From Candidatus Nanopelagicales bacterium (GTDB lineage: Bacteria; Actinomycetota; Actinomycetes; S36-B12; JBBRLC01), in NCBI GenBank assembly GCA_038244765.1, contig JBBRTC010000005.1:915-64914 (forward strand): 64,000 bases of DNA, in the 5' to 3' direction. Made by a program: the position numbers and the translations under genes. This document shows, in pieces, positions 1,173-59,142 of this stretch (the first letter of the stretch is position 1; every line of letters begins with the position of its first letter). The notes beneath the pieces were generated by a model. That model saw only the letters and a list, made by a program, of their open reading frames with translations. It was not told the DNA's origin and searched no databases.

Positions 1173-1205
1173 ACGAACCCAACCGGAGTGTCACAGCGCC
1201 GGTAG

Positions 1206-1245: not shown

Positions 1246-1285
1246 GTACTAATTGCGATGCGGAACCCAGAAACTGGGCGACGGA

Positions 1286-8009: not shown

Positions 8010-8023
8010 CGCCGCCACTCTCC

Positions 8024-8203
8024 CTAGAACAAAAACGAAAATGCGCCCTTGACCACGTTCCACAGCAGGTTGGCGACGTTGTCACCGGTAAGCAACTTCA
8101 TCAGAATTCCGCCGAGGCCGGCAGTGGCGCAGGTACCGACGGCGTATTCAGCCGTCGTCATTCCAGCGTCATTGCAACGCACTCGCGTGAGAATCTTCGG
8201 CAT
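8024..8203 (-). CDS. Flp-type prepilin (DUF4244 / Rv3656c-like), 59 aa
   Basis: My own translation: MPKILTRVRCNDAGMTTAEYAVGTCATAGLGGILMKLLTGDNVANLLWNVVKGAFSFLF. Flp cleavage motif G/MTTAEY followed by a hydrophobic helix. Strong RBS GAGGGGGA upstream. Absent from the ORF track, which lists no ORF below 60 aa. Confidence 0.8.
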   Translation of the reverse strand: MPKILTRVRCNDAGMTTAEYAVGTCATAGLGGILMKLLTGDNVANLLWNVVKGAFSFLF

Positions 8204-8349
8204 TTGTCCCCCTCATTCATTGCCCAACCGAAGGTCAGGCCGACGCCGGAGTTGGCGTCACAACTGACCCTGGACGGAACCCGCCGGTCCGGTCCCACGC
8301 CCGAACGAATCTGGGGATGACTCACCGACGCTGGCAGGTGGGGATGACC

Positions 8350-9162: not shown

Positions 9163-9863
9163 CAGAAGCCCAGGAGATCAAGAACGACTCCGGTGCCAAG
9201 GACGAGGAGACCGAGAGGCGAACCAACCAACCAACCCACGGGATCGGCGCCCAAAGCATGACCAATCATCAAGCCCATGATGGGCAATGACCCAACGAGT
9301 CGGGCCGTCGCCCGAGGCGCCGCCAATTCCGAGGACAGTTGGCGGCGTACATCGTTGTCGCGTGACGCGCGCGCGATGAGCCGATCGACCGCTTCCGCAA
9401 ACCGCGCCCCGGACGCTTCCCCGATCTGCCAACATGCCGCCAACCCCCGTAGCACCGATCCACCGGCCACCCTGGAATCGTGACGCAAAGCCACGTCGAC
9501 ACCCGCGCCCAGATTCGCTGCAACAAGCGCGCCCGGGCACACGGACGTCGGCGCGAAGATTGATGCTTCGCGTAACGCAACTCCCGGCGGCTGGCCCGCA
9601 CGTAACTCCGCACTCAACGCCACCAACAGCGTGATGACATCAGTACGGCGGGTCTGCTCAGCCCGGCGAGCCGACCCGGGAATTCGTATGGCCGACATGG
9701 TCTTCCGATGAGATGGGCGCCTGGCAAGCGCCTCGGAGACCGGCAACACCGAAATTGCGGCCAGTGCCCGAGCGCGCCGCCGACTCCGCGCGGGTATCGA
9801 TTCGGTGACCAACCAGATGGCACCAACGCCAGTCAATGCGATCCAGAAGTCTGGGCTGCTCAT
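9117..9863 (-). CDS. Type II secretion system F-family membrane protein (TadB-like, Rv3658c-like)
   Basis: Membrane protein. ATG at 9863 forms an ATGA overlap with the tadA-like stop (the maximal ORF runs to 9923). Confidence 0.72.
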   Translation of the reverse strand: MSSPDFWIALTGVGAIWLVTESIPARSRRRARALAAISVLPVSEALARRPSHRKTMSAIRIPGSARRAEQTRRTDVITLLVALSAELRAGQPPGVALREASIFAPTSVCPGALVAANLGAGVDVALRHDSRVAGGSVLRGLAACWQIGEASGARFAEAVDRLIARASRDNDVRRQLSSELAAPRATARLVGSLPIMGLMIGHALGADPVGWLVGSPLGLLVLGTGVVLDLLGFWWMARLVRTVESRMP

Positions 9864-44882: not shown

Positions 44883-44956
<74 letters not shown>

Positions 44957-44962
44957 CGCAAT

Positions 44963-44999
44963 CCAGCCGGTGCCCCTGCAGATCAGGAGCGCCGGCTGG
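44963..44999 (+). terminator. Hairpin immediately downstream of tRNA-Pro
   Basis: Arms CCAGCCGG / CCGGCTGG (8 bp) with a 21-nt loop. Confidence 0.45.
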
Positions 45000-45040
45000 A
45001 GCTATTAGGGAAGTCGCGAGCCGACCCTGATGACGCAGAA

Positions 45041-45634
45041 TTACTCCACCCGCGATTCGTCGATGCTGACCAGAAAACTGAGGACTCTTTGGGTGAGCAG
45101 AGCCGCTGATTCCTTGTCGTACGAAGTCAAGCTGGTGTCAGCAAAGAGATGCTTGTTGCCCGAGTACAGGAACAGTTCCGCACCAGGAGTTGACGCGACG
45201 AGGGCGCGGGCTGCGTCGATATCGCCCTCATCGACAAAGGACTCGTCGCCATCCATGCCGTGGATTTGGACCGGGACATGTTGTGGCCACGAATCGCCGA
45301 ACTCCGAGGTCGGGACACAGGCTTCGAACAGCAGCGCGCCCTTAGCGCCCGGTCGAGTCTGCGCGAGCATTTGAGTTGGCAGTACTCCGAGCGAGAAGCC
45401 CGCATAGACAAGTTCACTCGTGAGCCCAACAGACGCGAGCCGGCCACGTTCGATGATCTCAAGAAACCCGACATCGTGGGCGTATGCGATGCCTTCGTGG
45501 AGATCCTTGAAGACACGTCCGTCGTACAGGTCCGGGACGTGCACGGTGTGGCCGGATCGCGTCAGAGTCTTGGCGAATTCGTGGACACCGGGCGTCAGTC
45601 CTAATGCGTGGTGAAACAACAGCACTTCAGCCAT
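45041..45634 (-). CDS. Dienelactone hydrolase-family protein
   Basis: 197-aa alpha/beta protein. N-terminal LLFHHALGLTPG and nucleophile-elbow-like GFSLG. Confidence 0.7.
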   Translation of the reverse strand: MAEVLLFHHALGLTPGVHEFAKTLTRSGHTVHVPDLYDGRVFKDLHEGIAYAHDVGFLEIIERGRLASVGLTSELVYAGFSLGVLPTQMLAQTRPGAKGALLFEACVPTSEFGDSWPQHVPVQIHGMDGDESFVDEGDIDAARALVASTPGAELFLYSGNKHLFADTSLTSYDKESAALLTQRVLSFLVSIDESRVE

Positions 45635-45704
45635 GACCGCTCCTTTCCCGGGGCTCGAACTGTGCAGGGCCGGGATCGCACGCTAGTGGGCGCGACCGCC
45701 AACC

Positions 45705-46523
45705 ATGCGTTCGGCATCAAGTTCCGTACGTGACAGTGTGGACAACGTGGGAGTCACCGATGAGCAGTGGGACGGGTATCTCCGCACCTACCATCGCGAC
45801 CACGCGGGCATCACCGAACGATTGCTGAGTAGGGCAACCAGCCACGAAGGACGAGGCACGGCGTACGACTGGCTCAGGTCCGCAATTACCTCACCCGATC
45901 TGGTGCTCGATCTCGGCTGTGGAAGCGCCCCAATGCGTGACACATTCGCGTCGGCGCCTTACATCGGCGTTGACCTATCACCGGACGAACTCAGACTCGC
46001 GCTGTTGAGTGGTCGATCGTCTTTGGTGCGCGCGAATGCGCTCGCCTTGCCCCTGAAGGATCGCAGCGCGCCCACCGTGATCGCACCGATGTCGCTGATG
46101 TTGTTCACACCGACACGGGCAGCACTCGAAGAGGTCGCCAGAGTCCTCCGCCCGGGTGGAACGTTCGCGGCGTTGCTCCCGAACGCGTGGCCGCTTCTTC
46201 CGCGCGACGTGCTGACCGCCGCCCGACTAGCGCTGGCCTTACGCACCCAACCAGAATTTCCTCAGCGACTCAGATCACGGCCACTGGCCGCAGCGCTCCG
46301 CCGCTTCGGGTTAACAGTGACGGAGGATACGAGTCGACTGTTCCTCTACCCGATCACGTCCGAAAACGACGCCATCACCGCTGTGGACGGGCTATACCTG
46401 CCGGATCTACACCCGGATCGCCGCGCCGCTGCAATCCGGGTTCTCACCTCGCGGGCGGGCCGAGTGGATCTACCAATCCCGCTGAGACGCGTGGTTGCCA
46501 CGCGACACCAATCCGAGGGCTAG
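45705..46523 (+). CDS. Class I SAM-dependent methyltransferase
   Basis: Motif I VLDLGCGSAP and motif post-II/III RVLRPGG. The exact start is uncertain. Confidence 0.75.
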   Translation: MRSASSSVRDSVDNVGVTDEQWDGYLRTYHRDHAGITERLLSRATSHEGRGTAYDWLRSAITSPDLVLDLGCGSAPMRDTFASAPYIGVDLSPDELRLALLSGRSSLVRANALALPLKDRSAPTVIAPMSLMLFTPTRAALEEVARVLRPGGTFAALLPNAWPLLPRDVLTAARLALALRTQPEFPQRLRSRPLAAALRRFGLTVTEDTSRLFLYPITSENDAITAVDGLYLPDLHPDRRAAAIRVLTSRAGRVDLPIPLRRVVATRHQSEG

Positions 46524-46606
46524 TTGGCGACGAACGGGAGTCGATACGTTTCCCAACGTGTGACACTGACGTCGACGCGGGACCGCGCACATTCTCAGGA
46601 GGCTCA

Positions 46607-48028
46607 ATGCCCAGTGCACTTTCTCGGCTCCGCGACCAAGTCAGGGCCTTCGAATTGCGCACCCGCGCGATCGATCCGATCGCCCGTGCCGCCCGTGCAC
46701 GGCGCTGGGCCGCGCTGCCAGAATCGGCTCGGACACCTGAGCAGACCGTGGGGCGTTTTGCCATTGGCTGCGAAGGGACCCACGGCGTTTTCCCCAAATG
46801 CAATCTGACGTGCTCTCCGTGTTATCACTCCGCCGACGCCAACAAGGTACGGATCGACGGCGAGCACACAGTCGCCCAGGTGGAAGCACAGATGGCACTG
46901 CTTGAACAAGAGCGTGGACCGCACGCCCACGCTCAGCTGATCGGCGGAGAGGTCAGCTTGCTCGACCCAGATGCGCACGCGGAGTCCCTGCTCGCAATGC
47001 GACGCCACGGCCGAGAGCCAATGAGCATGACCCACGGTGACTTCGACTATGAGTATCTAGAAAAAGTGGCGCTCGGGGCCGATGGACATCCACGCCTAGA
47101 GAAACTCTCTTTTGCCGGCCACTTCGATTCACTCATGCGCGGCAGGCGCGGCCTGCCGCGACCCCGCCGAGAGCGTGAACTCGACTCGTACCGACAAGCG
47201 TTTGTCGACATGTTTCGCCGCCTTCAGCGCGAGCACGGAGTGAAATTCTTCCTCGCCCACAACATGACAGTCACGCCGCAAAACGTTGACCAAATCGCCG
47301 AGACGGTAGGTACGGCCAAAGACATGGGATTCGGGATGTTGTCGTTCCAACCGGCGGCGTATGTGGGCGACGACCGCCGGTGGACCGCAGATATGAGCGC
47401 GGCCTCTCCCGACGATATTTGGGGAGAAATCGAGAAAGGCGCTGGCGGCCGACTGTCACACCAGGCCGTTCAGATGGGAGATCCTCGCTGCAACCGAACG
47501 TCCTATGGACTCATGGTCGGCGAACGCTACGTACCGCTCATTGACGACCAACGGCCCCTCGACATCAAGACACGAGACATGTTCTTCGAGCGTTGCGGAG
47601 GCATGGGTTTCAACGCCGCACCCACCTGGCTCACCGCCGTACGCCTTGCGCGATTGGTAGTGCGGCATCCGTCCACGTTGGTCATCACCGCGCGATGGGC
47701 TGGCGGGAAAGTCGTCCAAGCCGGCGGACCGGTCGCGATCATGCGCGGCGGAATCCGGCCAATGACGTACGTGATGCACATGTTCATGGACGCCGAACAA
47801 GTTGCCCCGGCATGGGAACTGATGGAACAAGGCGTGGTCGCCACCGACCCGAAAGTCCGTGCAACCCAGGAGCGGCTGGGCGCATGCGTCTATGCGATGG
47901 CGCATCCAGAAACCGGCCGTATCGTGCCTGCCTGTGTCCAGCACAGCGTGTTGGATCCCAGCGAGAATGTCGAATTGCGAAAGTTGCTGCCACTTGTCGA
48001 AGTGCGTACGGCGCGTAAAGCCGCCTAA
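46607..48028 (+). CDS. Radical SAM enzyme of unknown specificity (473 aa)
   Basis: Canonical CNLTCSPC (CxxxCxxC) cluster motif near the N-terminus. ATG at 46607 preceded by AGGAGG. The ORF-track start at 46187 overlaps the methyltransferase and is unlikely. Confidence 0.8.
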   Translation: MPSALSRLRDQVRAFELRTRAIDPIARAARARRWAALPESARTPEQTVGRFAIGCEGTHGVFPKCNLTCSPCYHSADANKVRIDGEHTVAQVEAQMALLEQERGPHAHAQLIGGEVSLLDPDAHAESLLAMRRHGREPMSMTHGDFDYEYLEKVALGADGHPRLEKLSFAGHFDSLMRGRRGLPRPRRERELDSYRQAFVDMFRRLQREHGVKFFLAHNMTVTPQNVDQIAETVGTAKDMGFGMLSFQPAAYVGDDRRWTADMSAASPDDIWGEIEKGAGGRLSHQAVQMGDPRCNRTSYGLMVGERYVPLIDDQRPLDIKTRDMFFERCGGMGFNAAPTWLTAVRLARLVVRHPSTLVITARWAGGKVVQAGGPVAIMRGGIRPMTYVMHMFMDAEQVAPAWELMEQGVVATDPKVRATQERLGACVYAMAHPETGRIVPACVQHSVLDPSENVELRKLLPLVEVRTARKAA

Positions 48029-49099
48029 TCAACGGGTCGCTGGCACCGGAGCTGGCGACATGGGAACGGGCACCACATGGCGTTGGGAAACCGGCAGCAA
48101 TACCCCGACTGAGTCACCGACACGAGCCGACTGAGCAGGACCAACTTCGGCAACAACCCGAATCCCGTCGCAGCGCACGGTGACGGTTCGACGCGGCCCC
48201 GCCGACTCCACCGACAACACCTCACCCACAGCATCGGCGCGGGTATCTGTTGGACTGGCAAGGAAGACAGCCTCTTGCCGGATCACCAAAACCGCACCGC
48301 CATCGGCCGCGTCCGGAACCAGGAGATGACCAATGTCACTGATGTGGACGCCAGCAGAGACGACGCCGGGAAATTCATTCACGCCGCCAAGGAACCGGCT
48401 CACCACCAGGGACGCCGGCTGTGTGTAGAGGCGATCAGGTGTGTCGTGTTGTTCCAAGTGCCCATCCACGAGCAGGGCAATGGAGTCGGCAACGCTAGTC
48501 GCTTCGGTCTGATCGTGGGTCACCATCAGAATCGTTGGCTCGATGACGGCGCGCACCTCGGCCAACAGTTGGTGCATGTCCGCGCGCAACGACGGATCGA
48601 GCGCGCTGAACGGTTCATCAAGCAGGAGTACATCGGGCTCAGCAGCGAGGGCGCGCGCCAGCGCGACGCGTTGCTCTTGACCGCCTGACAACGAGCGCAC
48701 TGAGCGATCGCCGTAGTCATCAAGCTGGACAAGCTCAAGGAACCGGGCCGCTTTCACGCGAGCATCTCGGCGCGAAACTCCGGCCATCCGTGGCGCGAAG
48801 GCGATGTTGTCCAACACCGTCAAGTGCGGGAAAAGCAGGGGGCGCTGGAACATCAAGGCGATCCCTCGCCGCTCAGGCGCGACACCGCGCAAGTCGCGCC
48901 CTCCCACGGACACAGATCCCGCTTCTGGCTCGTCGAGGCCGGCCACCAAACGCAACACTGTGGTCTTGCCCGACCCGCTCGGGCCCAATAGCGCAACCAC
49001 TTCTCCCCGCGAGGCACTTAACGTCAAGTTGTTCACGGCGGGCGGTTGATTCGACGAGTGCTGACGCCGCAATCCGACGAGTTCGAGGTACGGCATCAT
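48029..49099 (-). CDS. ABC transporter ATP-binding protein (PotA/FbpC/YnjD-like)
   Basis: Walker A GPSGSGKTT, signature LSGGQEQRVALARAL, Walker B LLLDEPFSALD, and a C-terminal TOBE-like region. Confidence 0.92.
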   Translation of the reverse strand: MMPYLELVGLRRQHSSNQPPAVNNLTLSASRGEVVALLGPSGSGKTTVLRLVAGLDEPEAGSVSVGGRDLRGVAPERRGIALMFQRPLLFPHLTVLDNIAFAPRMAGVSRRDARVKAARFLELVQLDDYGDRSVRSLSGGQEQRVALARALAAEPDVLLLDEPFSALDPSLRADMHQLLAEVRAVIEPTILMVTHDQTEATSVADSIALLVDGHLEQHDTPDRLYTQPASLVVSRFLGGVNEFPGVVSAGVHISDIGHLLVPDAADGGAVLVIRQEAVFLASPTDTRADAVGEVLSVESAGPRRTVTVRCDGIRVVAEVGPAQSARVGDSVGVLLPVSQRHVVPVPMSPAPVPATR

Positions 49100-49944
49100 C
49101 GTGACCCCACCAATTCTGCCGCTGCAACGGGGCGATCGATTTCGGCGCTATGCGTGGGCTGAGATCGTCGACGGATGGGCGTGATGGCTCCAAAGAGTAG
49201 GAGCGGGCACAGCACGCAAAGCACTGCCATGACGGCCACAACTGACTCGTTCCCCGTCCCTGTGGTAGTCGCACCGAGCAGCATCGGGAGGGTAACTATC
49301 TGCCCGCCACCGACGAGCAAGGTCACGATGTAGTCGCTCCACCCGACCAGAAAGGCCAGAAACGCAGAGACAGTCAGCGCCGGTAGTACCAGCGGAACAT
49401 GGACCCGCCAACGCACGGCCTCAGGGGATGCGCCAAGTGTGCGGGCCTCCTCCTCGTACCCGAGGTCGTGTCCGAGGTAGGCGACTCTCATGACGTACGT
49501 CGTGTACGGGATGGCCGCAACCACCAAAATGGTCATCACTCCTACCAACCCGGGAACGCGCCAACGCAGCAGCACGATGTTGAGTCCCATCACCACGGCG
49601 AAGGACGGAATGGCAATCGGCGCAAGCAAGATGACTTCCACCAGCCTGCCGGCAGGGACTCTGCCGAAGGTGAGGGCACGCGCAGCCGCCGCGCCAATCG
49701 GGGTAGCCACCAATGCGACGACCGCGGCAAGCAACAACGAGCGACCCATGGCTGATGCGACGCCCTCGGTGACGGCTTGGTGAAGTCCGTCGGTCCCGAG
49801 TTCGGTGGGTAGGACCGACGGATAGGGCCATCGATTGGCGAAAACCCACAGCAACATCGGTACGAGTGGCACCACAAACCACAGCACCAGGCCGAGTCGT
49901 CCAACTACTCCGAAGGTCGAGCGAAGCCATCGCAGCGGTCTCAT
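49096..49944 (-). CDS. ABC transporter permease
   Basis: About 6 TM helices and an EAA-like loop (EEEARTLGASP). 4-nt overlaps with both neighbouring genes. Confidence 0.88.
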   Translation of the reverse strand: MRPLRWLRSTFGVVGRLGLVLWFVVPLVPMLLWVFANRWPYPSVLPTELGTDGLHQAVTEGVASAMGRSLLLAAVVALVATPIGAAAARALTFGRVPAGRLVEVILLAPIAIPSFAVVMGLNIVLLRWRVPGLVGVMTILVVAAIPYTTYVMRVAYLGHDLGYEEEARTLGASPEAVRWRVHVPLVLPALTVSAFLAFLVGWSDYIVTLLVGGGQIVTLPMLLGATTTGTGNESVVAVMAVLCVLCPLLLFGAITPIRRRSQPTHSAEIDRPVAAAELVGSR

Positions 49945-50816
49945 CGCAACGCCCTACTTCGACGTAGCAGCATGCTGCCGATGACGACAACAACGGCTGC
50001 TATTGCTGTAGTAATCGCCGCGACGGCGCTGGCTTGAGGCCGCACGGCCAGGTCCGTCGAAGTAAAAAGCTGATAGGCCAGCACCGAGAGCGGCTGTGGG
50101 TAGGCGCGCCCTAGCAACCACGCCACTTCGTACGACCCTAGGGTGTAGACGAACGAGATCGTCCCGGTCACGATCAACGCCGGGGCGAGCAGGGGCAAAG
50201 TGAGCGAGCGCAGCCGCTGCCACGGTGACGCGCCGAGAACAGCGCCGGCTTCGTCGTATTGAGCCGCGCGGCTTCGCAAGGACGCCACGACCACAATGGC
50301 GACAAAAGCCGACTCTTTCCAGGCGTACTCCGCAATCACCGCTGCCCACGAGGGACCACCGACGAATGCGGGAAAGGTGCCGGGCGTGGATCCGGTGAGA
50401 CGAGCGAGAAGACCTGAATCGGCCAGTAACAGGCCCATCGTCGCCGCACCCACTAAGTGCGGCACGGGGACAGTGACCGCCGCGGCCGCCCCGACTGCGC
50501 GACTCCCGCGTCGACGCCGCTGAATAGCGAGGCCCGCTGCCGTGCCAATGACGAGGGCTAGTGCCGTACTGATCACAGCGATGCCCAACGAAACGACGAG
50601 AGCCGATCCGAGCTCCCCCGCCGCGTTGACTTGTCGATAGGCATCCAGTCCCGGATTCGGTCGACCTGCGAAAGGCAACAACCCGAGGCTCTGAGAAAGA
50701 ACCAACCCGAGTCCCCCGACTAAAACTGCGACTGTGGGCACGAGGGCTGGCAAAACCCACCAACCGTGACCTCCAGGTGGTCGCGGTTGGCGAAATGGAT
50801 GTGCTAGATCGGTCAT
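49941..50816 (-). CDS. ABC transporter permease
   Basis: About 6 TM helices and an EAA-like loop (YDEAGAVLGASP). ATG at 50816 forms an ATGA overlap with the substrate-binding-protein stop (the maximal ORF runs to 50867). Confidence 0.88.
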   Translation of the reverse strand: MTDLAHPFRQPRPPGGHGWWVLPALVPTVAVLVGGLGLVLSQSLGLLPFAGRPNPGLDAYRQVNAAGELGSALVVSLGIAVISTALALVIGTAAGLAIQRRRRGSRAVGAAAAVTVPVPHLVGAATMGLLLADSGLLARLTGSTPGTFPAFVGGPSWAAVIAEYAWKESAFVAIVVVASLRSRAAQYDEAGAVLGASPWQRLRSLTLPLLAPALIVTGTISFVYTLGSYEVAWLLGRAYPQPLSVLAYQLFTSTDLAVRPQASAVAAITTAIAAVVVVIGSMLLRRSRALR

Positions 50817-52069
50817 CCCGCGCCAAGAACCTCGCGCCGCCAGCCAGCGTCGAGCGGCCCGACCCAACCAGAATTCAACTCGGGGTTTGCGTTGCGAGCC
50901 AACACCTCATAGGGCGGCACGACTTTCGACGCCGGAAGCGCTTCAAACAGCGCGCGATCTGCTGGGGAGAGCAGGCTCACGTCAAGAACGGTGAACTGAC
51001 CCCAGACCTGTGGATCTGCCTTTGCGGCTTGCTGCTCCGGGGACATCGCCAAGTTTGCGACCACTTTGGCACCCGCGGAGTCGGCCGCGTTCGCGGCAAG
51101 CCCAAGGAAACTGGCATTGCCGACGGTCCCCTCATCAAGCGTAAGCACCTTCGTGGTGGCCGGTAAGGCACCCTTGTCGACGAGCGAGGTTAGGGTGGCT
51201 GGCCCATAGGTCATCGAGAAGTCGACTTGGCCACCGGCGTATAACTTGTCCAGTTCAGCTTGATCACGGGGGTAGGTCGAACCACCTCGCCACAACGAGG
51301 ATTTGAGCCCCTGCAACGTCGAGTAGAGCGCGGGAGTTAGCCGGTCGTAGTCGCTCTGACTAAATGTGCTTGGCACGTTCTCTACCCCACCAGAAGCGGA
51401 GTAGAGGGCCTCGCGAACGAACACTGAGCCGGTGAAGTCCGGGGGCGCTGGATAGGTGAAACGCCCGGGGTGTTTGCGCGCCCAGGCAAATAGTTCCGCA
51501 AAAGTCGAAGGGGGGTCACTCAATTTGGCGGAGTCATAAACCAGAGTAAATTGTGCCTTGTGCCATGGTGCCTCACATCCGCCCGTCAGAACCCCAAAGT
51601 CCTTTACTAGCAGCGGATCGGTGGGATTGAGAAAGCGCGCGTTCGGCAACGTTTGAACCCAATCGCATGCCCACGCCTTAGCTTGTTGACCGGTACTGAA
51701 GTTGTTGCCATTGACCCAGACAAGATCCACACTTCCATCCGTGCGACCCGCTTGCTGCTCGGCAAGAATCCGATTGAGTGCATCTTTGGTGTCGGTGATG
51801 GGAACTCGACGTAGCGTCACATCCAACTTTGCCGCGGCGGGCGCCAACACGTTGTCGATGTAGGCGTTGCCCTGTGGATCACCCCCGTACATCCACAAGT
51901 CCACCGTCTGTCCCTTGGCCGCTGCCAGCACTGACTCCCAATTGGAATTAGCGGTCTGGCTTGCCGCGGTGGAAGCGGGATCCGCTCCGGCGCACGCACC
52001 CAAACTCAGGATTGTCACCAGCCCTAGCGCCGGAATGCCCAACATTGGGGTTCGATTCGACCTCTCCAC
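50813..52069 (-). CDS. ABC transporter substrate-binding lipoprotein (YnjB/ThiB-like family suspected)
   Basis: Signal peptide with lipobox LSLGAC. GTG at 52069 preceded by GGGAGG (the maximal ORF runs to 52087). Periplasmic-binding-protein-like length. Confidence 0.8.
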   Translation of the reverse strand: MERSNRTPMLGIPALGLVTILSLGACAGADPASTAASQTANSNWESVLAAAKGQTVDLWMYGGDPQGNAYIDNVLAPAAAKLDVTLRRVPITDTKDALNRILAEQQAGRTDGSVDLVWVNGNNFSTGQQAKAWACDWVQTLPNARFLNPTDPLLVKDFGVLTGGCEAPWHKAQFTLVYDSAKLSDPPSTFAELFAWARKHPGRFTYPAPPDFTGSVFVREALYSASGGVENVPSTFSQSDYDRLTPALYSTLQGLKSSLWRGGSTYPRDQAELDKLYAGGQVDFSMTYGPATLTSLVDKGALPATTKVLTLDEGTVGNASFLGLAANAADSAGAKVVANLAMSPEQQAAKADPQVWGQFTVLDVSLLSPADRALFEALPASKVVPPYEVLARNANPELNSGWVGPLDAGWRREVLGAG

Positions 52070-52248
52070 GCGCGCCTCCCACTTCAACTGAATGGACCAA
52101 GCGGGAACCGCATAGCCTGGAGTTTGCTACCACAGTCGCCCTTTGCTCTTCGGAGTGATCCCGGAATCGGATCGGTAAATGCACAGGCGCCTTGCTGGCT
52201 GGTACCCCACCAGGTCGGGAATGCGCAGATGGGAGCGGTGTCCACCCA

Positions 52249-52860
52249 ATGTTTGATCAACGCAGTCGGCGAGCCCTTACGCGACCCCTCGACGGCGTGG
52301 CTGCAACTCTTGATCGACCGTGGATTTCCCCCAACGGCGTAACGGTGGTCGGGCTGTTGGTCGGTCTGGGGGCGGCTTTTGCTGCTGGGCGCGCTCTGTG
52401 GGCCGTCGCGCTGCTGCTCTGGCTCGCCCGCTGCCTGGCAGACGGTGTGGACGGTTCATTGGCACGTCGTCGAGCAACGACGACCGGGACCCTGCCATCG
52501 GCGTCAGGGGGCTATCTGGATATTTGCTGCGATTTCGCGGTTTACGGAGCGTTCGTTGTGGGCGTCGGCATCGGTGTCGGCGACCTGCTGCCCTTTATGG
52601 CGGTCCTACTGGCCTACTACCTCAATGGCTCAGCCTTCTTGGCGTTTTCGTCACTTGCTGAGAAAACGGGGCGCCAGTTGGACGACGGACGATCATTGTC
52701 GTTTCTTGGTGGACTCGCCGAAGGCACCGAGACCGTAATCGTGCACTGCATGTGGTGTGTCGTTCCGTCGTACTCCGTACCCATTGCGTGGGCTTGGGCG
52801 CTCGTGGTGGGGGTTAGCGCCGTGGGCCGCACCGTCGCGGGATTTCGCATATTGCGCTAG
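52249..52860 (+). CDS. CDP-alcohol phosphatidyltransferase-family membrane protein
   Basis: Signature DGVDGSLAR...GGYLDICCD (D-G-x2-A-R...G-x3-D-x3-D) and several TM helices. Start is either the ATG at 52249 or the TTG at 52192. Confidence 0.85.
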   Translation: MFDQRSRRALTRPLDGVAATLDRPWISPNGVTVVGLLVGLGAAFAAGRALWAVALLLWLARCLADGVDGSLARRRATTTGTLPSASGGYLDICCDFAVYGAFVVGVGIGVGDLLPFMAVLLAYYLNGSAFLAFSSLAEKTGRQLDDGRSLSFLGGLAEGTETVIVHCMWCVVPSYSVPIAWAWALVVGVSAVGRTVAGFRILR

Positions 52861-52918
52861 TGCGAACCCGCCAGCGCTGTCCGGGAATTCGGCGGACATG
52901 CCTCATTCCCGGTCTCTG

Positions 52919-54346
52919 TCAGGGTCGGCGGCGTTCAGCTCGCCGACGTTGGATCGCCCCGAGGAAACGCGTTGCATGTGCTGTGAGACCTTGCGCCAAC
53001 CGAGTCTGGGTATCGTCGATGGCAGCCTTCCACGGACCATCACCAAACGTCGGGTAAGCATGAGTCGAACTCGCGAGGTCCCGAGTTGTGAGCCCCTTAC
53101 GCACCGCAAGCGTCAACTCCGCGAGCATCTCCCCCGCACGAGGAGCCACGACTGTAGCTCCGACAATCACGCCCTTGGAATCGAGAACCAAGCGAGTGAA
53201 ACCATCCGTACGACCCTCAGCGATCGCGCGATCGACGTGCTCGTGCGACATGGTCACCACTTTCGCGGCGCCTTCGGCTGCTTCTCCGACTGCGGCCAAT
53301 TCGGGGTCGGTAAAAGTCACTCGCGGAACCGTCGCTTCCACGCCGCGGCGCAGACCTAAGACTGCATTGCTAGCGGCGAGCGCACCATTGACACCGGCGA
53401 CGTGCGTGAACTGCGGATGACCCGTGATGTCGCCCGCTGCCCAAATTCGTCGGTTCGTGGTGCGCAATCCACCGTCGACCTGAACCATGCCGCGCTTGTC
53501 TACAGCGACGCCGGCGTTGTCCAGGCCGATTCCCTTGGTCCTCGGTGTTCGTCCAACGGCCACCAGCAACTGGTCGTAATCAATCCGGCTGTTGTCTTCC
53601 AAGACAACGACTCCAGCGGCTCCTTGCGCCTCAACTTTCGTCATCTTCAATCCGCAGACAATCGTGACCCCGTCTTCCACAAGCGCCGCAGTAACGAGTG
53701 CGGCCGCTTCTTCATCCTCACGTGAGAGTAGGCGCGGCAGCCCCTCGATAATCGTCACCTGCGAACCCAGCCTCGCAAAGGCCTGGCCCAATTCACATCC
53801 AATGCTTCCACCGCCGAGCACGACAAGGTTTTGTGGCAGTTCAGTGAGGTCCCACACAGTGTCTGAAGTGAGGAACTGCGCCTCAGCAAGTCCAGGAATC
53901 GGTGGAATGGCGGGCGACGCGCCTGTCGCGAGCAGTATGGCTCGCGCGTTGATGTCCATACCGTCGAGCAACACTCGATCAATGGACTCAAACCGAATCT
54001 CGCCGGTGCGTACCGTGACGCCTTGGGTCATCAACGTTTCGGCCGAGTCGTCGGGTTCGATGCGCGAAATGACCTCGCGAACATGTGTCATTACGGCAGC
54101 AAAATCGACGCGTGGCACCTCGAAGTGAATCCCAACTCGCTCCGAGCGACGAGCATCGGCGACATGATGCGCTGCCGCGAGCAGGGTCTTGCTGGGAACG
54201 CACCCCGTCCATAGACAGTCCCCGCCCATGCGCGCGCGCTCGACCAACAGTGTTCGGGCACCCAACATCGCGGCCGTCCTGGCTCCTACGATTCCGGCGG
54301 TGCCGCCGCCGACCACGAGCAAATCCCAGATCGAGTCATCGCCCAT
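52919..54346 (-). CDS. Class I pyridine nucleotide-disulfide oxidoreductase (dihydrolipoyl dehydrogenase / mercuric reductase-like core, no NmerA)
   Basis: FAD motif VVGGGTAG, redox-active CLWTGC in GGDCLWTGCVPSK, NAD motif VLGGGSIGCE, and the C-terminal dimerisation motif HAYPT. Confidence 0.85.
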   Translation of the reverse strand: MGDDSIWDLLVVGGGTAGIVGARTAAMLGARTLLVERARMGGDCLWTGCVPSKTLLAAAHHVADARRSERVGIHFEVPRVDFAAVMTHVREVISRIEPDDSAETLMTQGVTVRTGEIRFESIDRVLLDGMDINARAILLATGASPAIPPIPGLAEAQFLTSDTVWDLTELPQNLVVLGGGSIGCELGQAFARLGSQVTIIEGLPRLLSREDEEAAALVTAALVEDGVTIVCGLKMTKVEAQGAAGVVVLEDNSRIDYDQLLVAVGRTPRTKGIGLDNAGVAVDKRGMVQVDGGLRTTNRRIWAAGDITGHPQFTHVAGVNGALAASNAVLGLRRGVEATVPRVTFTDPELAAVGEAAEGAAKVVTMSHEHVDRAIAEGRTDGFTRLVLDSKGVIVGATVVAPRAGEMLAELTLAVRKGLTTRDLASSTHAYPTFGDGPWKAAIDDTQTRLAQGLTAHATRFLGAIQRRRAERRRP

Positions 54347-54374
54347 TGGCGTTGCCCTTCAGAGTGAGGTCAAG

Positions 54375-55634
54375 TTAGACGGTGAGCGCGTTCGAGATCG
54401 CGTCGAAGGCGTAGAGCGTCGAGAAGAGCTTGTCGGGGTCCTGCGGCGTCGGCCAGCTCGACACCTTGGCCGCCACCACCTGGGCACGCCGGTTCACATA
54501 GATCATCTGTCCGTGGATCCCGAGGCAGAGCCCGACATCGGGGTCGGCGGACGGGAACCAGATCTGGTTGCGGTACATCCCCCCGGGCATCAACGTCTGC
54601 CCAGGGCTGTCCGCGAAAGCCTTGCGGGAATCCACGCCGCCGTCAAAGGTGTCGGCGATCCACGACTCAGGGATCACCTGGGCGCCGGTGAGGGACGCCC
54701 CCTCTGCGAGGAACAGCGCACCAAAGCGCACCAGGTCGCGCAGCGACGCACTAATGCCGCCGTCGAACATCCCGGTGCCCACCGAGTCAATACCGATGTT
54801 CGCGTCGTGCTCCGCCCCGAGACGGCTCCAGAGCAAGTCGGACATGAGCTCGGGCATGCGAACTCCGGACGCGGCCTCGCAGATCCAGCCGAGCACGTCG
54901 GTCTCGCATGAGCGGTACTCGAACGGGCCGCCGTGCGGACCCTTCTGCTCGAGGGTGAGCAAGTAGTCGTACATGGTCGCCGGTACGTCGGGGCTACGCC
55001 GCGGCGCCCAGTCGATGGCCTCCTCGAGGACGCGTACGTGGGCGTTCGGGTCGAGGTAATCCTCGGAGAACAGGATGCCCGAGCGCATGTCGAGCAGGTG
55101 CCGGACGGTGGCGCCGGCATACCCGGAGGACATGAGCGCCGGCACATACGTCGTCAGCGGCGCCTCGACGTCGAGCTGGCCGGACGCCACTAGTGCACCG
55201 ACCACGGCCGAGACGAGCGACTTGCTCACGGACATAAGCAGGTGCAGTGAGCCCGCCGCCATGTCCCCCGTGTACGCCTCGGCCAGCACCACGCCGTGGT
55301 GGGCGAGAATCCAGCCGTCGGTGTCCGAGGCCGCCATGATCTCCGAGACCGTGCGCCGGTCATTGCCGTCGGAGCGGCCGTACCCGCGAAGGTGAGGCAC
55401 TTGCACGTCGCCGATCGAGGCCGGGGCCGAATGGAGTCTCGCGACCGGACCGGTCCCGCGCGAGATCGTCGCAGTCGGCAGAATCTCGGCGATGTGCTGG
55501 AACGACCACCGCAGGTGCTCTGCAAGCTGCCAATTGCCACGCGCCACATCGGTCGGCACCCGGCCGGGGTCGCTCCCGATCACCACACGCTCCTCGTCCC
55601 GGGTTCCGGCACCCCCCGTGCCGGGACCGAGCAT
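54375..55634 (-). CDS. Serine hydrolase, beta-lactamase/transpeptidase-like fold
   Basis: SxxK motif SVSKS within LLMSVSKSLVSAVVG. 419 aa. Confidence 0.75.
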   Translation of the reverse strand: MLGPGTGGAGTRDEERVVIGSDPGRVPTDVARGNWQLAEHLRWSFQHIAEILPTATISRGTGPVARLHSAPASIGDVQVPHLRGYGRSDGNDRRTVSEIMAASDTDGWILAHHGVVLAEAYTGDMAAGSLHLLMSVSKSLVSAVVGALVASGQLDVEAPLTTYVPALMSSGYAGATVRHLLDMRSGILFSEDYLDPNAHVRVLEEAIDWAPRRSPDVPATMYDYLLTLEQKGPHGGPFEYRSCETDVLGWICEAASGVRMPELMSDLLWSRLGAEHDANIGIDSVGTGMFDGGISASLRDLVRFGALFLAEGASLTGAQVIPESWIADTFDGGVDSRKAFADSPGQTLMPGGMYRNQIWFPSADPDVGLCLGIHGQMIYVNRRAQVVAAKVSSWPTPQDPDKLFSTLYAFDAISNALTV

Positions 55635-55670
55635 CGCACAGACCCCGCACCGTCCTGGATCAAGCCGAGG

Positions 55671-57233
55671 TCAGACCGTCTTCGCAGTGTGGGCCACGGG
55701 CACCGGGTCGTTGAGCGGGATCCCGGTGTACTCCGCACGGATCGAGTCGATGAAGTGCCGAGCCCGGATGGTCAGGGCCGTCGCGCCCGAGGCTGTGTCG
55801 ACTTGCAGCCGTCCCTTCGTCACCAGGACACCGAGGTCCGCGCCCTTCCACCGGTGGTCGCCGACACCGTAGATGCGCAGGAAGAACGCCTCCTGGTCGT
55901 TCTGCAGCTGGTGCCAGTCCAGGGCTGCGCGGCGGAAGACCAGAGCACCGCCGCTGTCGAGGGCGTACTGCCCGGTTCGGGCCGTGGTCTCGAGAAGCTG
56001 GACGCCAGGGGCCGTCTCCTTGATGATCATCTGGCTCCACATGTCGTCGGCCGCCAGTTCCTCCCACCGCTTGTTGATCTCGTCGACGTCCAGGTCGAAG
56101 TCGACGTCCATGAACTCCAACAGGTGGAACAAGAAGAGCGGCACGTCGGCGTACGCGCCAGCGGTGACGTTGGTGATCGCGGAAGCGCCACTAATGCGCG
56201 GGTTGAGCTCGCCGAGGTAGACCTCGTGGGTGTCGGTGTCCACGAGTACGTCGACCTCGAGGAACCCGCGGTAGCCCTCCTTCGCCAGCCGGCCGCCAAG
56301 CCGGCTCACGAGCCGTGCGGCCATCTCGCGCTCCTGGCCGGTGAGCACGTCTTTGAACATCTCGTTGCCGCACCAGCCGCCGCGGTACGGAGTCAGCTTG
56401 GAGTAGCCGGTGAGCTCGGACATGAACGGTCCGACGACGGTGCCGCACCGCGTTATCACAGCCTCTACCGCGACCGGGCGATTGTTGATCCGCGTCATCA
56501 CCTTGACGTCCTGGCCGGCGATCTCCTTGCTGTGCTTGTCCCAATCGGCCTCCGAGTTGATGAAGAACGTGGTCTTCCCCGAGTCGCCGTACGGCGTCTG
56601 AACCACGAGGTCGTCACCCAGCTTGGCCTTCTTCGACGCGGCAATCAGGCCCGGCCAGTCCTCGACGTTGGTGAGAACGTTCGGGACGCTCGGCACTTTC
56701 GCTTCGTTGCCGAGACGGGTGGTCACGAGTTTGCAGTCCAGGCGCTCGCGCAGGCTCGCCGGCGGCAAGATCAGGTCGTAGCCGAGCTCCGCGCAGATCG
56801 CCTCCGTCTCCTCGTTGAAGAACACCATCGCAACCTTCGGCCGTACGCCGGGCGCGAGTCCTCGGCCCATGAAGGTCCTCACCTCGGGGTTGTTCAACAG
56901 CCAATTGTTGATGTCCTCGCCGCTGGTGAACTCGACGTACGGCTTGTGCTTCGGGGAGAACACTCGCGGATGGGCACCGTCCCAGCCGTCGTAGTAGGCG
57001 ACGTACCAGAGGTTACGTACCCACCGGTCGAGGCCGAGAAGATTAAACGGAGTCGCACCCAGGAAGTAGATCGGGACGTCGTTCGTGCGGAAGAAGTTCC
57101 GTACCTCGGAGATGTTCTTGAGCGTCCGCCCGCGGGTGCCCGGGAACGCGCCAGGCGCCGACACAGCATCGGTCCCCATGCTGGTCTCGGCCGGCGCGAC
57201 AGCAGCCGATGTAACCGGCGTCTCCTGACTCAT
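55671..57233 (-). CDS. ATP-grasp-fold ligase with large N-terminal pre-ATP-grasp extension (520 aa)
   Basis: ATP-grasp-like central and C-terminal core (LVVQTPYGDSGKTTFF...GFLEVDVLVDTDTHEVYLGELNPRISG). ATG at 57233 preceded by GGAGG. The maximal ORF start at 57446 is unlikely. Confidence 0.7.
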   Translation of the reverse strand: MSQETPVTSAAVAPAETSMGTDAVSAPGAFPGTRGRTLKNISEVRNFFRTNDVPIYFLGATPFNLLGLDRWVRNLWYVAYYDGWDGAHPRVFSPKHKPYVEFTSGEDINNWLLNNPEVRTFMGRGLAPGVRPKVAMVFFNEETEAICAELGYDLILPPASLRERLDCKLVTTRLGNEAKVPSVPNVLTNVEDWPGLIAASKKAKLGDDLVVQTPYGDSGKTTFFINSEADWDKHSKEIAGQDVKVMTRINNRPVAVEAVITRCGTVVGPFMSELTGYSKLTPYRGGWCGNEMFKDVLTGQEREMAARLVSRLGGRLAKEGYRGFLEVDVLVDTDTHEVYLGELNPRISGASAITNVTAGAYADVPLFLFHLLEFMDVDFDLDVDEINKRWEELAADDMWSQMIIKETAPGVQLLETTARTGQYALDSGGALVFRRAALDWHQLQNDQEAFFLRIYGVGDHRWKGADLGVLVTKGRLQVDTASGATALTIRARHFIDSIRAEYTGIPLNDPVPVAHTAKTV

Positions 57234-57468
57234 GAAACCTCCGCTGTCGATGACCCATCGAGGCACGTGACCAAGCAGACGCACGTGGGACCCGCGATCT
57301 GCCGGTTCCTGGCGATCATGCCCCGTCCGGTGTATTGCCGCCATCGGTTCCGCTCCCTGGCGTTCAACATCTCGGCGGATCCCCATTTGACCAAGACCCC
57401 GCTTGCCAGCACAGCCGCTATTCAGGGCGGGCGAACCAACGCACAATTCACGTCAATCTCGACGTGAC

Positions 57469-58710
57469 TCAGGTCGTAGGTCGGTGCGCGCGTCGCCGCA
57501 AGAAGTCGGCTTCCGCGGTGCTTTGCGCCAACGCGATCGCTTCGCGATATTCCGCCGCCGCTTCATTGGTTTGACCAACTTGTTCGAGCAATTGCGCGCG
57601 AACGGCATGCCACCGATAGGCGAGGCCCCCTGTATCGGGGTCGAGGGCGTCGAGGGCGTCAACACCGGCCTGTGAGCCGTGCACCATACTCACCGCAACC
57701 ACGCGTCCGAGCCGAGCCGCGGGAGAATCGTCGACGGTCAGTAGCAAGTCATAAAGCACGAGAATCTCCGCCCAATCGGTCGCTTCGTACGTCGTCGCAT
57801 GTGCGTGAACCGCGGCGATCGCGGCTTGCAATTTGTACGAGCCCAAGGGACCACTGGTCAGCGCTGAGGTCACGAGCTGATCAGCTTCAGCGATCGTGGC
57901 TTGATCCCAACGGCCGCGGTCCTGCTCTTCCAGCGTGATGAGTTCCCCCTGCGCACCGACCCGACTCATCCGACGAGAATCGTGAAAGAGCATCAGCGCC
58001 AACAACCCCGACGCATCGACGTCCTCGGGCATCAGCCGAACAAGAAGTCGAGCCAACACGATGGCCTCGTCACAAAGCTCGGTGCGCAGAAACACATCGG
58101 CATCACTTGATGCGTAGCCCTCGTTAAAGACGAGGTAGATGACGTGACAAACAGAGGCCATGCGATCGGGAACTTCACGCACCGAGATGTCGAACGGAAT
58201 CTTGGTCGCTGCAATCTTTCGTTTGGCCCGGACCAGACGCTGAGCCATCGTCGGTTCGGGTACGAGGAAACCCCGCGCTATTTCGGCCGTCGTCAAACCC
58301 GCAACGCTTCGCAGGGTTAGTGCAATTCGCGATTCCTCCGAGAGCGCCGGATGGCAACACATGAAGAGCAAGAGAAGTTGGTCATCAAGAAAATCATCTC
58401 GAGGGGGCGCCCCCTCAACTGGTTCCATGCTGATCGGTGCAGCGCGTTCCCGCTCGGCGCGACGACCTTCTCGGCGTACTCGATCCACCACCCGGCGGCG
58501 GGCAACAGTCAGCAACCACGCGCCTGGGTTGTCGGGCAAACCCGAACGCGGCCACTGCTGCCAGGCGTCGAGGCACGCTTCCTGATAGCCGTCCTCGGCC
58601 AGATCCAAATCCCCGTACTGGCGCATCAGAGCGCCGAGGACGGTGCTCGACTCTTGTCGAAACACCGCCTCGGCGAGTGCTACATCGACTGACGCACTGA
58701 CGTCGACCAC
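57469..58710 (-). CDS. ECF sigma factor with long C-terminal TPR-like extension (ECF42-type)
   Basis: Sigma region 2 (GAWLLTVARRRVVDRVRRE) and region 4 (LTLRSVAGLTTAEIARGFLVPEPTMAQRLVRAKRKI) followed by about 230 extra residues. Directly downstream of a DGPF/YciI gene. Confidence 0.85.
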   Translation of the reverse strand: MVDVSASVDVALAEAVFRQESSTVLGALMRQYGDLDLAEDGYQEACLDAWQQWPRSGLPDNPGAWLLTVARRRVVDRVRREGRRAERERAAPISMEPVEGAPPRDDFLDDQLLLLFMCCHPALSEESRIALTLRSVAGLTTAEIARGFLVPEPTMAQRLVRAKRKIAATKIPFDISVREVPDRMASVCHVIYLVFNEGYASSDADVFLRTELCDEAIVLARLLVRLMPEDVDASGLLALMLFHDSRRMSRVGAQGELITLEEQDRGRWDQATIAEADQLVTSALTSGPLGSYKLQAAIAAVHAHATTYEATDWAEILVLYDLLLTVDDSPAARLGRVVAVSMVHGSQAGVDALDALDPDTGGLAYRWHAVRAQLLEQVGQTNEAAAEYREAIALAQSTAEADFLRRRAHRPTT

Positions 58711-58718
58711 AGCGGCAA

Positions 58719-59066
58719 TTACATGGAGACGACGGGACGAACTTCGACGCCCCCGGTTCGTGCGTCAGGGATCATCGCGGCGAGTTCGATGGCGCGGTCC
58801 AGATCGGGGACTTCGACGAGGTAGTAGCCCGCCAAAACCTCCTTCGTCTCGGCGAAGGGTCCATCGGTCGAGGTGCGCTTGCCGTTGCGTACTCGCACGG
58901 TGGTGGCGGTTTCGATGCCAGCGAGTGGTGCACCGTCGACCATTTCACCGGATGCCACGAGTTTGTCGGTGAATTCGGTGTACTCGGCGTGCATCTGGAT
59001 CTGCTGGGCCTCGGTCATCGTGCCGTTGGCCTCGGGGTTGGACGCAATCAGGAGCAGGTAACGCAT
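58719..59066 (-). CDS. YciI-related DGPF-domain protein
   Basis: MRYLLLI... and the DGPFAETKE motif. 115 aa. Confidence 0.85.
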   Translation of the reverse strand: MRYLLLIASNPEANGTMTEAQQIQMHAEYTEFTDKLVASGEMVDGAPLAGIETATTVRVRNGKRTSTDGPFAETKEVLAGYYLVEVPDLDRAIELAAMIPDARTGGVEVRPVVSM

Positions 59067-59115
59067 GGAGTCCTCCAGCTGGTCACGAGTGAGACGATCC
59101 CACTCTCAGCCGTAC

Positions 59116-59142
59116 GTCGAACGAACCCACCCATTCTCGACA
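59116..59142 (-). promoter_or_regulatory. Candidate ECF42-type promoter TGTCGA-N17-CGAC upstream of the DGPF gene
   Basis: Minus strand reads aaagaTGTCGAgaatgggtgggttcgttCGACgta, about 50 nt upstream of the start at 59066. As I recall, the ECF42 consensus is a -35 TGTCGA with a -10 CG(A/T)C. Confidence 0.45.

Follow-up and report, generated by a model that had tools for sequence, protein, structure and literature searches.

Among the sigma factors of the extracytoplasmic function (ECF) class, ECF42 members accompanied by a DGPF/YCII protein have been described in Streptomyces venezuelae (SVEN_0747, SVEN_4377 and SVEN_7131), Sinorhizobium meliloti (RpoE10) and Pseudomonas putida (ECF-10) (PMC8999054, PMC6180224). 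The promoters of S. meliloti RpoE10 read TGTCGG-N17-CGTC, and this sigma factor activates the operon located directly 3' of its own gene (PMC6180224). A different kind of described system is the gamma-glutamylation route of polyamine catabolism, represented by PuuA/PuuD and, in Streptomyces, by GlnA2/GlnA3 (PMC5403932, PMC8998196). Here, a locus of Candidatus Nanopelagicales bacterium (Actinomycetota) is compared with systems of both kinds. It lies in a stretch of 64,000 nt (contig JBBRTC010000005.1 of assembly GCA_038244765.1, positions 915 to 64,914), which is called the window below, and it brings together a DGPF–ECF42 gene pair, an ATP-grasp gene, a gene for a NylB-like serine hydrolase and a disulfide reductase gene. 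With a probability of about 60%, the locus is read as a mosaic of three independent pieces, of which the ATP-grasp/NylB-like cassette would act in amine-related amide ligation and hydrolysis. The DGPF–ECF42 pair would be the last part of a conserved backbone and have its own ECF42-type promoter. The mobile two-gene cassette would be the first occupant of a slot ending at a tRNA-Pro gene; it would occur as a unit in hundreds of genomes of Actinomycetota and other groups, in unrelated contexts, and would have been acquired horizontally here. The reductase would be a further, unrelated slot occupant, and only because of the 28-nt gap that separates it from the cassette is it considered as probably co-transcribed in this genome.

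Family searches of the translations placed all five genes on the minus strand. In the direction of transcription they encode a DGPF/YCII-domain protein of 115 aa (58719-59066; Pfam YCII, 3.7e-20, with the DGPF motif in the translation), an ECF42-type sigma factor of 413 aa (57469-58710; Sigma70_r2, Sigma70_r4_2 and DUF6596), an ATP-grasp enzyme of 520 aa (55671-57233; NCBIfam NF005096, PRK06524; GGAGG 6 nt before the ATG), a NylB-like beta-lactamase-fold serine amidohydrolase of 419 aa (54375-55634; Pfam Beta-lactamase, 1.8e-31) and a class I pyridine-nucleotide disulfide oxidoreductase of 475 aa (52919-54346; Pyr_redox_2, 2.4e-65; Pyr_redox_dim, 3.9e-22; active-site segment GGDCLWTGC). The successive spacings are 8, 235, 36 and 28 nt. 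A preliminary description of this DNA had given the same genes, spacings and two promoter-like motifs (59142..59116 and 57464..57438), all of which were confirmed, and had interpreted the genes as one compact unit: an ECF42-controlled module in which a CGTCGA-N17-CGTT promoter would serve the three enzymes, and in which a single peptide or thiol metabolite would be ligated, trimmed and redox-processed. The common strand, the short gaps, the resemblance of the element behind the sigma gene to the ECF42 consensus and the failure to detect a terminator past that gene are in its favour, as is the precedent of the S. meliloti ECF42 sigma factor driving the operon directly downstream (PMC6180224). 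Composition and synteny, however, divide the five genes into three separate pieces, and such a module is regarded as very unlikely from the comparisons described in the following.

A scan of one genome per species (GTDB) yielded 502 ATP-grasp loci, of which the best 80 were retrieved together with 10 kb on either side; with 26 metagenome loci and 3 contigs carrying the closest proteins, they make up 109 related loci. Searches by tblastn with the window proteins located a NylB-like gene immediately downstream of the ATP-grasp gene in 75 of the 80 genome loci. The same pairing was seen again in the metagenome loci and the 3 contigs, including paralogues at 55-66% identity where the contig was long enough. 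The ECF42 sigma factor, the DGPF protein and the reductase were found within 10 kb in 0 of the 109 related loci, even at E 1e-3, and matches to ask and asd were likewise absent from the 80 genome loci at this threshold and from the metagenome loci. When the neighbouring open reading frames (ORFs) were clustered all against all, none of the further families exceeded 21 loci, and such recurrences reflect synteny inside one mycobacterial lineage. In the closest clade the third gene encodes a peptidase C45/AAT protein and no reductase is present. The idea that the enzyme genes are conserved together thus holds for the ligase and the hydrolase, a pair with strong co-conservation and no known experimental characterisation, whereas neither the reductase nor the ECF42/DGPF pair ever accompanies them in the related loci.

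The protein identity of the pair exceeds 70% across Mycobacteriales, Micrococcales and other orders. To its 120 closest matches in the database, the ATP-grasp protein is 72-93% identical (Mycobacterium, Mycolicibacterium, Antrihabitans and many uncultured Actinomycetota). An exhaustive search of representative sequences gave 349 clusters at E <= 1e-30; full-length members extend down to about 30% identity, and all of them match NF005096. Tandem copies of the pair were observed at four loci (L061, L097, L100 and L108), in the order ATP-grasp, NylB-like, second ATP-grasp (48-59% identity) and, where the contig extends, second NylB-like. The window cassette is a new copy of a widespread uncharacterised gene pair, and the interest of the locus rests on this cassette, not on its juxtaposition with the sigma pair.

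The ends of the cassette are defined by its closest relative, contig L083, whose positions 377-3427 align with window 57416-54366 at 90.5% identity, the homology resuming at window 45135-42468 with 83.8%. Accordingly, the conserved unit (window 57416..54366) begins with a leader of about 185 nt, continues through the ATP-grasp and NylB-like genes and extends 9 nt beyond the stop codon of the latter. L083 carries neither a sigma gene upstream nor a reductase downstream of it; another gene on the opposite strand, the cassette, tRNA-Pro and the metallophosphoesterase gene follow one another. Identities between the L083 and window proteins amount to 93% for the ATP-grasp enzyme, 89% for the NylB-like enzyme, 92% for the metallophosphoesterase and 97% for the PBP. 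The five-gene arrangement is thus absent from the closest cassette relative, and it is equally absent from L112, the closest relative of the sigma factor. The GC content at third codon positions (GC3) also sets the cassette apart: it reaches 0.879 in the ATP-grasp gene and 0.876 in the NylB-like gene, compared with 0.64-0.77 in 19 neighbouring genes, among them the sigma gene (0.652) and the reductase gene (0.643), and the same contrast between cassette and neighbours is present in L083. Because this codon composition is foreign to the surroundings, the pattern indicates horizontal acquisition, presumably from a donor of higher GC content.

The sequence around the cassette follows a backbone with the order dnaX-recR-DUF5063-ask-asd-DGPF-ECF42-[variable]-tRNA-Pro-metallophosphoesterase-YqeY-PBP. 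The two homologues closest to the sigma factor (73% and 67% identity) are encoded in the same backbone as that of the window, with dnaX, recR, DUF5063, ask, asd, YCII and ECF42. In L112 (73%) the space behind the sigma gene is empty, its stop codon lying about 220 nt from tRNA-Pro(CGG). L114 has genes for a TetR protein and a methyltransferase in this space, with tRNA-Pro, metallophosphoesterase, YqeY, PBP and WhiB beyond them. The window has the same tRNA-Pro, metallophosphoesterase, YqeY, PBP and WhiB genes as its relatives, but at a distance of 12.5 kb from the sigma gene. Since the content between ECF42 and tRNA-Pro differs among relatives, this region is considered a variable slot of which the cassette is one occupant. 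In the window the slot covers 12.5 kb (44958..57468), from the 3' end of tRNA-Pro(CGG) to the ECF42 stop codon, with flanks kept in L112, L114 and L083. Its far boundary, the tRNA-Pro(CGG) gene itself (44883..44957, plus strand), was identified by both ARAGORN and Rfam and is the same tRNA in L083, L112 and L114. Besides the cassette and the reductase gene, the slot holds an ABC importer of the Pot/Phn type, a radical-SAM-like ORF and genes for a CDP-alcohol transferase, a methyltransferase and a dienelactone hydrolase.

The sigma factor at the other end of the slot has the regions expected of an ECF core (Sigma70_r2, 1e-12; Sigma70_r4_2, 2.1e-10; TIGR02937 above its cutoff), followed after region 4 by a C-terminal extension of about 240 aa (residues ~170-413; DUF6596, 2.2e-35). 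The same architecture was present in 120 of 120 homologues among the matches listed, some of which also match TPR families (PF07719, PF13424, PF00515). The YCII/DGPF gene lies 8 nt upstream of the sigma gene, and the pair is also syntenic in L112, L113 and L114. The assignment to ECF42 made earlier, with a TPR-like extension, is supported by the architecture, the DGPF partner and a conserved ECF42-type promoter, although no TPR model matched the window protein itself. With an ECF core, a C-terminal extension, an adjacent DGPF/YCII gene, no anti-sigma gene at that place and a promoter of the target type, the pair appears, as judged from its sequence, to be an ordinary ECF42 module that is not unusual in itself.

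The promoter in question, TGTCGA-N17-CGAC, lies 5' of the DGPF gene (59116..59142, minus strand). Exact matches to TGTCGR-N17-CGWC number 3 in the window against 2.0 expected, and the DGPF-upstream site is the sole intergenic one, the other two being intragenic. Its TGTCGA, the TTCGAY of the -10 region and a following GTACGG are invariant in the window, L112/L113 and L114, and the surroundings diverge. These features make it a credible promoter of the DGPF–ECF42 pair. The site (59116-59141) was also seen to fit a relaxed motif on both strands (GTCGA...TCGAC), because the -35 and -10 elements of ECF42 promoters are mutual reverse complements.

The second motif, CGTCGA-N17-CGTT (57438..57464, minus strand), is situated 5 nt past the sigma stop codon, on the backbone side of the junction, and its function is uncertain. 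It had been taken for a near-copy of the DGPF promoter that would drive an enzyme operon, a role to which neither its frequency nor its position lends support. It differs at 2 positions from the consensus, and such sites number 318 in the window compared with 379 expected; a looser consensus chosen post hoc, GTCGA-N17-CGWY, has 10 matches against 8.4 expected. The near-copy alone is therefore not distinguishable from chance. It falls within the 52 nt between the sigma stop codon and the homology breakpoint, outside the block homologous to L083/L084 and hence not part of the cassette. The leader proper (57234..57416, minus strand) is 83% identical to L083/L084 until homology stops at about 57416, and it contains indels that would break a reading frame, so it is considered non-coding. 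A longer ATP-grasp ORF starting from 57446 was likewise rejected, as the homologues begin near MSQE, the indels relative to L083 break the frame and GGAGG precedes the ATG at 57233. The best-conserved block of the leader is TGTTGA-N17-CGAT (57343..57369, minus strand), in which the window and L083/L084 agree fully over both hexamer regions and differ in the spacer. It is one mismatch from the ECF42 -35 element and is predicted as a candidate cassette promoter. No sigma-70 consensus promoter was detected in 52-60 kb, including the cassette leader. A riboswitch or structured leader in the 235-nt spacer was also considered and rejected, with no Rfam match even at E <= 1 and a folding z of -0.42 relative to shuffles.

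An element resembling the near-copy, CGTCGA-N17-CGAT, is found on the sigma strand of L112 (9349-9375) and in L113, about 100 nt after the ECF42 stop codon, and its spacer has some similarity to that of the window element. In L112 it faces only a strong hairpin and the antisense strand of tRNA-Pro, and it might represent a promoter of the ECF42 type that is orphaned or a relic. These sites bear on the possibility that ECF42 has come to control the acquired cassette and the reductase behind it in this genome alone, with transcription starting at the post-sigma element or reading through from the DGPF promoter. The recurrence of a CGTCGA-N17-CGAY-like element after the sigma gene in the window and in L112/L113 would fit such a capture, and so would the near match of the leader block to the ECF42 -35 element and the missing sigma-70 consensus in the leader; read-through from the sigma gene is possible because no intrinsic terminator was found in the spacer. 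The window element, however, begins its -35 hexamer with C, a position at which all of the six credible ECF42 promoters observed have T. Its -10 sequence, CGTT, is unlike the local CGAC/CGAT, and its alignment with L112 by homology needs an 8-nt indel that puts the homologous -10 at N25, while the L112 element, with nothing but a hairpin and an antisense tRNA before it, may be a relic. Among ATP-grasp genes elsewhere, the consensus fixed a priori occurred upstream in 2 dereplicated clusters against 0.65 expected (P = 0.14), which is no enrichment. ECF42-dependent transcription of the cassette in this genome is held to be rather doubtful, and a conserved functional link between the two far more so.

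Turning to the proteins of the cassette, the ATP-grasp enzyme scores 709.1 bits with NF005096 (cutoff 684), whose NCBIfam product name is 'biotin carboxylase'. This match is sequence-family membership only, and no experimental basis was found for the product name. Among Pfam families no match was obtained, and neither a biotinyl nor a carboxyltransferase domain was detected. A first AlphaFold2 model, computed from a shallow alignment, was unusable (predicted local distance difference test, pLDDT, 49); it was replaced after a clade about 50% identical to the query had been added, giving a model with a pLDDT of 84.6 and a predicted template modelling score of 0.84. Foldseek retrieved Escherichia coli biotin carboxylase (2v58) as best match of this model (E 1.8e-16), with PurK also listed; the biotin carboxylase alignments span ~480 residues at template modelling scores of 0.56-0.64 and 12-15% identity. 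When the family profile was compared with the PDB, it reached biotin carboxylase domains (1e-12), carbamoyl-phosphate synthetase (CPS; 9e-5) and PGM1 (1e-3). K168, E257, E326, E342, N344 and R346 are invariant in the family and the E-x-N-P-R motif is kept. Together, these data suggest an active-looking ATP-grasp enzyme with a predicted biotin-carboxylase-like three-domain fold. The position of biotin carboxylase Glu296, however, is Ala350 (NPRISGAS vs NPRIQVEH), which is near-invariant in the family, and among the neighbour families recurring in >=3 loci, within ~4 genes at 100 loci, there is no biotin carboxyl carrier protein or carboxyltransferase. The protein thus has the three-domain fold of an AccC-type enzyme but neither its catalytic Glu nor its partner genes or domains, and therefore the database name is probably a misnomer. 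As further features, GGWCGNE (residues 285-291) is an invariant, family-specific segment with a conserved Cys, for which we know of no counterpart in biotin carboxylase. The model shows the first ~33 residues as disordered, and mycobacterial homologues have long Ala/Pro/Lys/Thr-rich extensions in their place.

The partner hydrolase matches the 6-aminohexanoate-dimer hydrolase in the PDB over residues 23-398 (E 1e-65). Its Ser-x-x-Lys nucleophile (SVSK) is part of a HLLMSVSKSL segment identical to that of NylB, and the catalytic Tyr of (Q/E)Y(C/R)S is aligned. With this full-length homology, nucleophile and Tyr, it is a close NylB relative and a predicted serine amidohydrolase. In the mechanism proposed for the pair, the ATP-grasp enzyme, which keeps the residues for Mg, ATP and phosphoryl transfer and is without the biotin-specific Glu, would form an intermediate of the acyl-phosphate or carboxy-phosphate type and would then convert an amine substrate into an amide. 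At a later step of the same pathway, an amide bond would be cleaved by the partner amidohydrolase (NylB-like here, peptidase C45 in a sister clade). The logic would be that of gamma-glutamylation (Puu/GlnA3), namely to ligate, oxidise and hydrolyse.

Two other chemistries were considered for the pair. As a biotin-independent carboxylase of the PurK/CPS type, the ATP-grasp enzyme might use bicarbonate and ATP to N-carboxylate an amine or amide, and the hydrolase might cleave the product, in the manner of urea carboxylase and allophanate hydrolase. Biotin carboxylase, PurK and CPS are indeed the nearest folds and profiles, the NPR-S-x-x-SA motif of the family resembles the CPS motif of CarB, and a CN_hydrolase of the N-carbamoylputrescine-amidase family is part of the sister-clade operon. 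However, NylB-type and C45 enzymes are known as amide or peptide hydrolases or acyltransferases and not as decarboxylating hydrolases, and the family profile also reaches the peptide ligase PGM1 and amide ligases of the PurT type, so such a carboxylase is judged improbable. Even less likely is a peptide or D-amino-acid ligase that would work with a DD-peptidase- or aminopeptidase-like hydrolase on cell-wall or small-peptide substrates. The beta-lactamase fold does include DD-peptidases and D-aminopeptidases, and some family members are annotated by JGI as 'D-alanine-D-alanine ligase-like', but the best relatives of the two proteins are NylB and biotin carboxylase and not Ddl or the R61 peptidase, and the recurrent neighbours are amine-catabolic and not cell-wall genes.

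These neighbours, which recur across independent lineages, were counted at 100 ATP-grasp loci by use of a simple GC3-based gene call. The most frequent was an APC amino-acid permease (AA_permease; 13 loci in 9 sub-clusters), which at 6 loci lies directly 5' of the ATP-grasp gene on the same strand. It was followed by aldehyde dehydrogenase (Aldedh; 10 loci, 5 sub-clusters), class-III aminotransferase (Aminotran_3; 8 loci, 6 sub-clusters), group-II pyridoxal-phosphate decarboxylase (Pyridoxal_deC; 8 loci, 2 sub-clusters), AAT/C45 (7 loci, 5 sub-clusters) and ornithine/lysine/arginine decarboxylase (OKR_DC_1; 6 loci, 3 sub-clusters). Flavin amine oxidase (3 loci, 3 sub-clusters) and a PucR regulator (3 loci, 2 sub-clusters) also recurred. 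In the sister clade (~50% identity; Gemmatimonadota and others), the ATP-grasp genes of contigs L115-L119 (~8001-9560 in each) belong to a tight operon with the order CN_hydrolase-OKR_DC_1-ATP-grasp-AAT/peptidase C45. This operon was found in four places that represent three independent loci, with a decarboxylase of 920-986 aa, and in 2 of the 3 independent loci it is accompanied by aldehyde dehydrogenase, class-III aminotransferase and permease genes. Nothing pointed to the small peptide or thiol substrate that had been proposed for the locus, and no neighbour in the surveyed loci suggests thiol chemistry; the recurrent neighbours elsewhere suggest amine metabolism. Metabolism of a diamine, polyamine or omega-amino acid is accordingly the most likely role of the cassette, although as an assignment drawn from gene neighbourhoods it is put forward with clearly less than even confidence. 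More tentative still is the fuller proposal that the cassette represents an unrecognised, widespread amine route in which an ATP-grasp enzyme would replace the glutamine-synthetase-like ligase and mask or conjugate such a compound, the product would be released by a serine or Ntn amidase, and an ECF42 promoter may be in charge here.

Several observations weigh against the mosaic reading and the amine role attached to it. No integrase was found among the slot genes and no att-like direct repeat of the tRNA 3' end at the slot, so that of the features of a tRNA-associated integrative island only variable content beside tRNA-Pro and the GC3 shift are present. The final ~95 nt of the dienelactone-hydrolase ORF are still present in L083, within ~178 nt of DNA beside tRNA-Pro. 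From this remnant, the 9.2 kb including the reductase may have been deleted in L083 and not inserted in the window, and the order of NylB-like and reductase genes in the window may predate that deletion; the absence of co-conservation elsewhere is left unchanged by this possibility. Because only the best 80 of the 502 genome loci were inspected, ECF42 adjacency could occur among the others. In view of the element in L112/L113, the post-sigma element of the window may be a genuine promoter of the backbone from which transcription now enters the cassette, and the 235-nt spacer between the sigma and ATP-grasp genes has no detectable terminator-like site. A looser ECF42-like pattern, defined post hoc, was mildly over-represented upstream of ATP-grasp genes elsewhere (5 against 1.1 expected). 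The neighbour families named above are common in genomes, and for this reason the amine link is suggestive only. Finally, literature searches for the ATP-grasp family (PRK06524), also in combination with NylB/6-aminohexanoate and in polyamine catabolism, returned nothing relevant.

The reductase has the CxxxxC centre GGDCLWTGC, FAD and NAD(P) Rossmann domains and a dimerisation domain, which are the features of class I pyridine-nucleotide disulfide reductases. Its closest matches in the PDB are mercuric reductase (1.7e-80) and dihydrolipoamide dehydrogenase (Lpd; 1e-72). It stays below the cutoff of every NCBIfam equivalog (for the MerA model TIGR02053, 364.7 against a cutoff of 454), lacks the C-terminal Cys pair and has no mer genes nearby, and so does not qualify as MerA. 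By sequence, it appears to be a generic class I enzyme, outside the cassette and an unrelated occupant of the slot.

Among the remaining slot genes, a four-gene ABC importer of the PotABCD/PhnSTUV type (polyamine/2-aminoethylphosphonate) lies at 48029-52087, and its substrate-binding protein matches NF008633 (PRK11622) with 444 bits. An ORF of 613 aa (46187-48028, plus strand) has a weak, below-cutoff radical-SAM match (E 1.8e-4) and no NCBIfam match. It overlaps the 3' third of the methyltransferase ORF (45705-46523, plus strand), so its true start is probably later. The gene of the CDP-alcohol phosphatidyltransferase family (52192-52860, plus strand), weakly similar to inositol-phosphate and phosphatidylcholine synthases, is oriented away from the ABC operon and towards the reductase gene. 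ORFs on the strand opposite to the five genes, including one of 723 aa antisense to the ATP-grasp gene, have no family matches; they were therefore rejected as genes and treated as shadows of GC3-rich genes.

A five-gene module would have supplied a defined enzymatic regulon for ECF42 sigma factors, and a cassette under an ECF42 promoter would be a concrete physiological output for one of them. As the evidence gives no support to a sigma-controlled module, the locus should not serve as an example of an ECF42 target. Its remaining value lies in a highly conserved pair annotated as 'biotin carboxylase' and 'serine hydrolase', of which the first name is probably wrong. The company of decarboxylase, aminotransferase, aldehyde dehydrogenase and permease genes leads to a testable prediction on amine or omega-amino-acid metabolism, and the cassette may indicate a natural role of the NylB-type 'nylon' hydrolases.

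Compared with the known ECF42 systems, the window pair has the same sigma2 and sigma4 regions, a C-terminal extension of ~200-240 aa, a YCII/DGPF gene immediately 5', no anti-sigma gene and a TGTCGA-N17-CG(A/T)C promoter 5' of the DGPF gene, in the same layout as the RpoE10 promoters. It differs in bordering a variable slot downstream, with no conserved target operon. The ATP-grasp family shares with the biotin carboxylase/PurK/CPS branch the three-domain fold, the E-x-N-P-R Mg/phosphate motif and the conserved Lys and Glu ligands of ATP, whereas it is set apart by an identity of 12-15%, the Ala at the Glu296 position, GGWCGNE and an amidohydrolase partner. The hydrolase resembles NylB/NylB' of Paenarthrobacter KI72 over nearly its full length (E 1e-65), with the same HLLMSVSKSL segment and catalytic Tyr; unlike these, it is chromosomal and paired with an ATP-grasp gene. 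With MerA and Lpd the reductase has in common the CxxxxC centre, the FAD and NAD(P) domains and the dimerisation domain, but it has neither the C-terminal Cys pair nor an NmerA domain, and the region of the HxxxxE dyad reads YPTFGD.

For the three-enzyme idea of the preliminary description, the best precedent is the trypanothione system. There, glutathionylspermidine or trypanothione synthetase-amidase combines an ATP-grasp ligase with an amidase acting on the same amide, and trypanothione reductase belongs to the class I disulfide reductases. In contrast to that system, the window reductase is not co-conserved with the other two enzymes, the amidase fold is that of a beta-lactamase and not CHAP, and nothing indicates a thiol. 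Similar in logic is gamma-glutamylation, as in PuuA-PuuB-PuuC-PuuD-PuuE-PuuP of E. coli and GlnA2/GlnA3 of Streptomyces coelicolor, with its combination of an ATP-dependent amide ligase and an amide hydrolase; in various genomes the cassette is, in addition, accompanied by an amine oxidase or aminotransferase, an aldehyde dehydrogenase and an APC permease. The cassette ligase is, however, an ATP-grasp enzyme and not glutamine-synthetase-like, and its hydrolase has a beta-lactamase fold, or is of the C45 type, and does not resemble class-I glutamine amidotransferases. The cassette is therefore not a pathway of the Puu/GlnA3 type, and its resemblance to these routes is one of pathway logic only.

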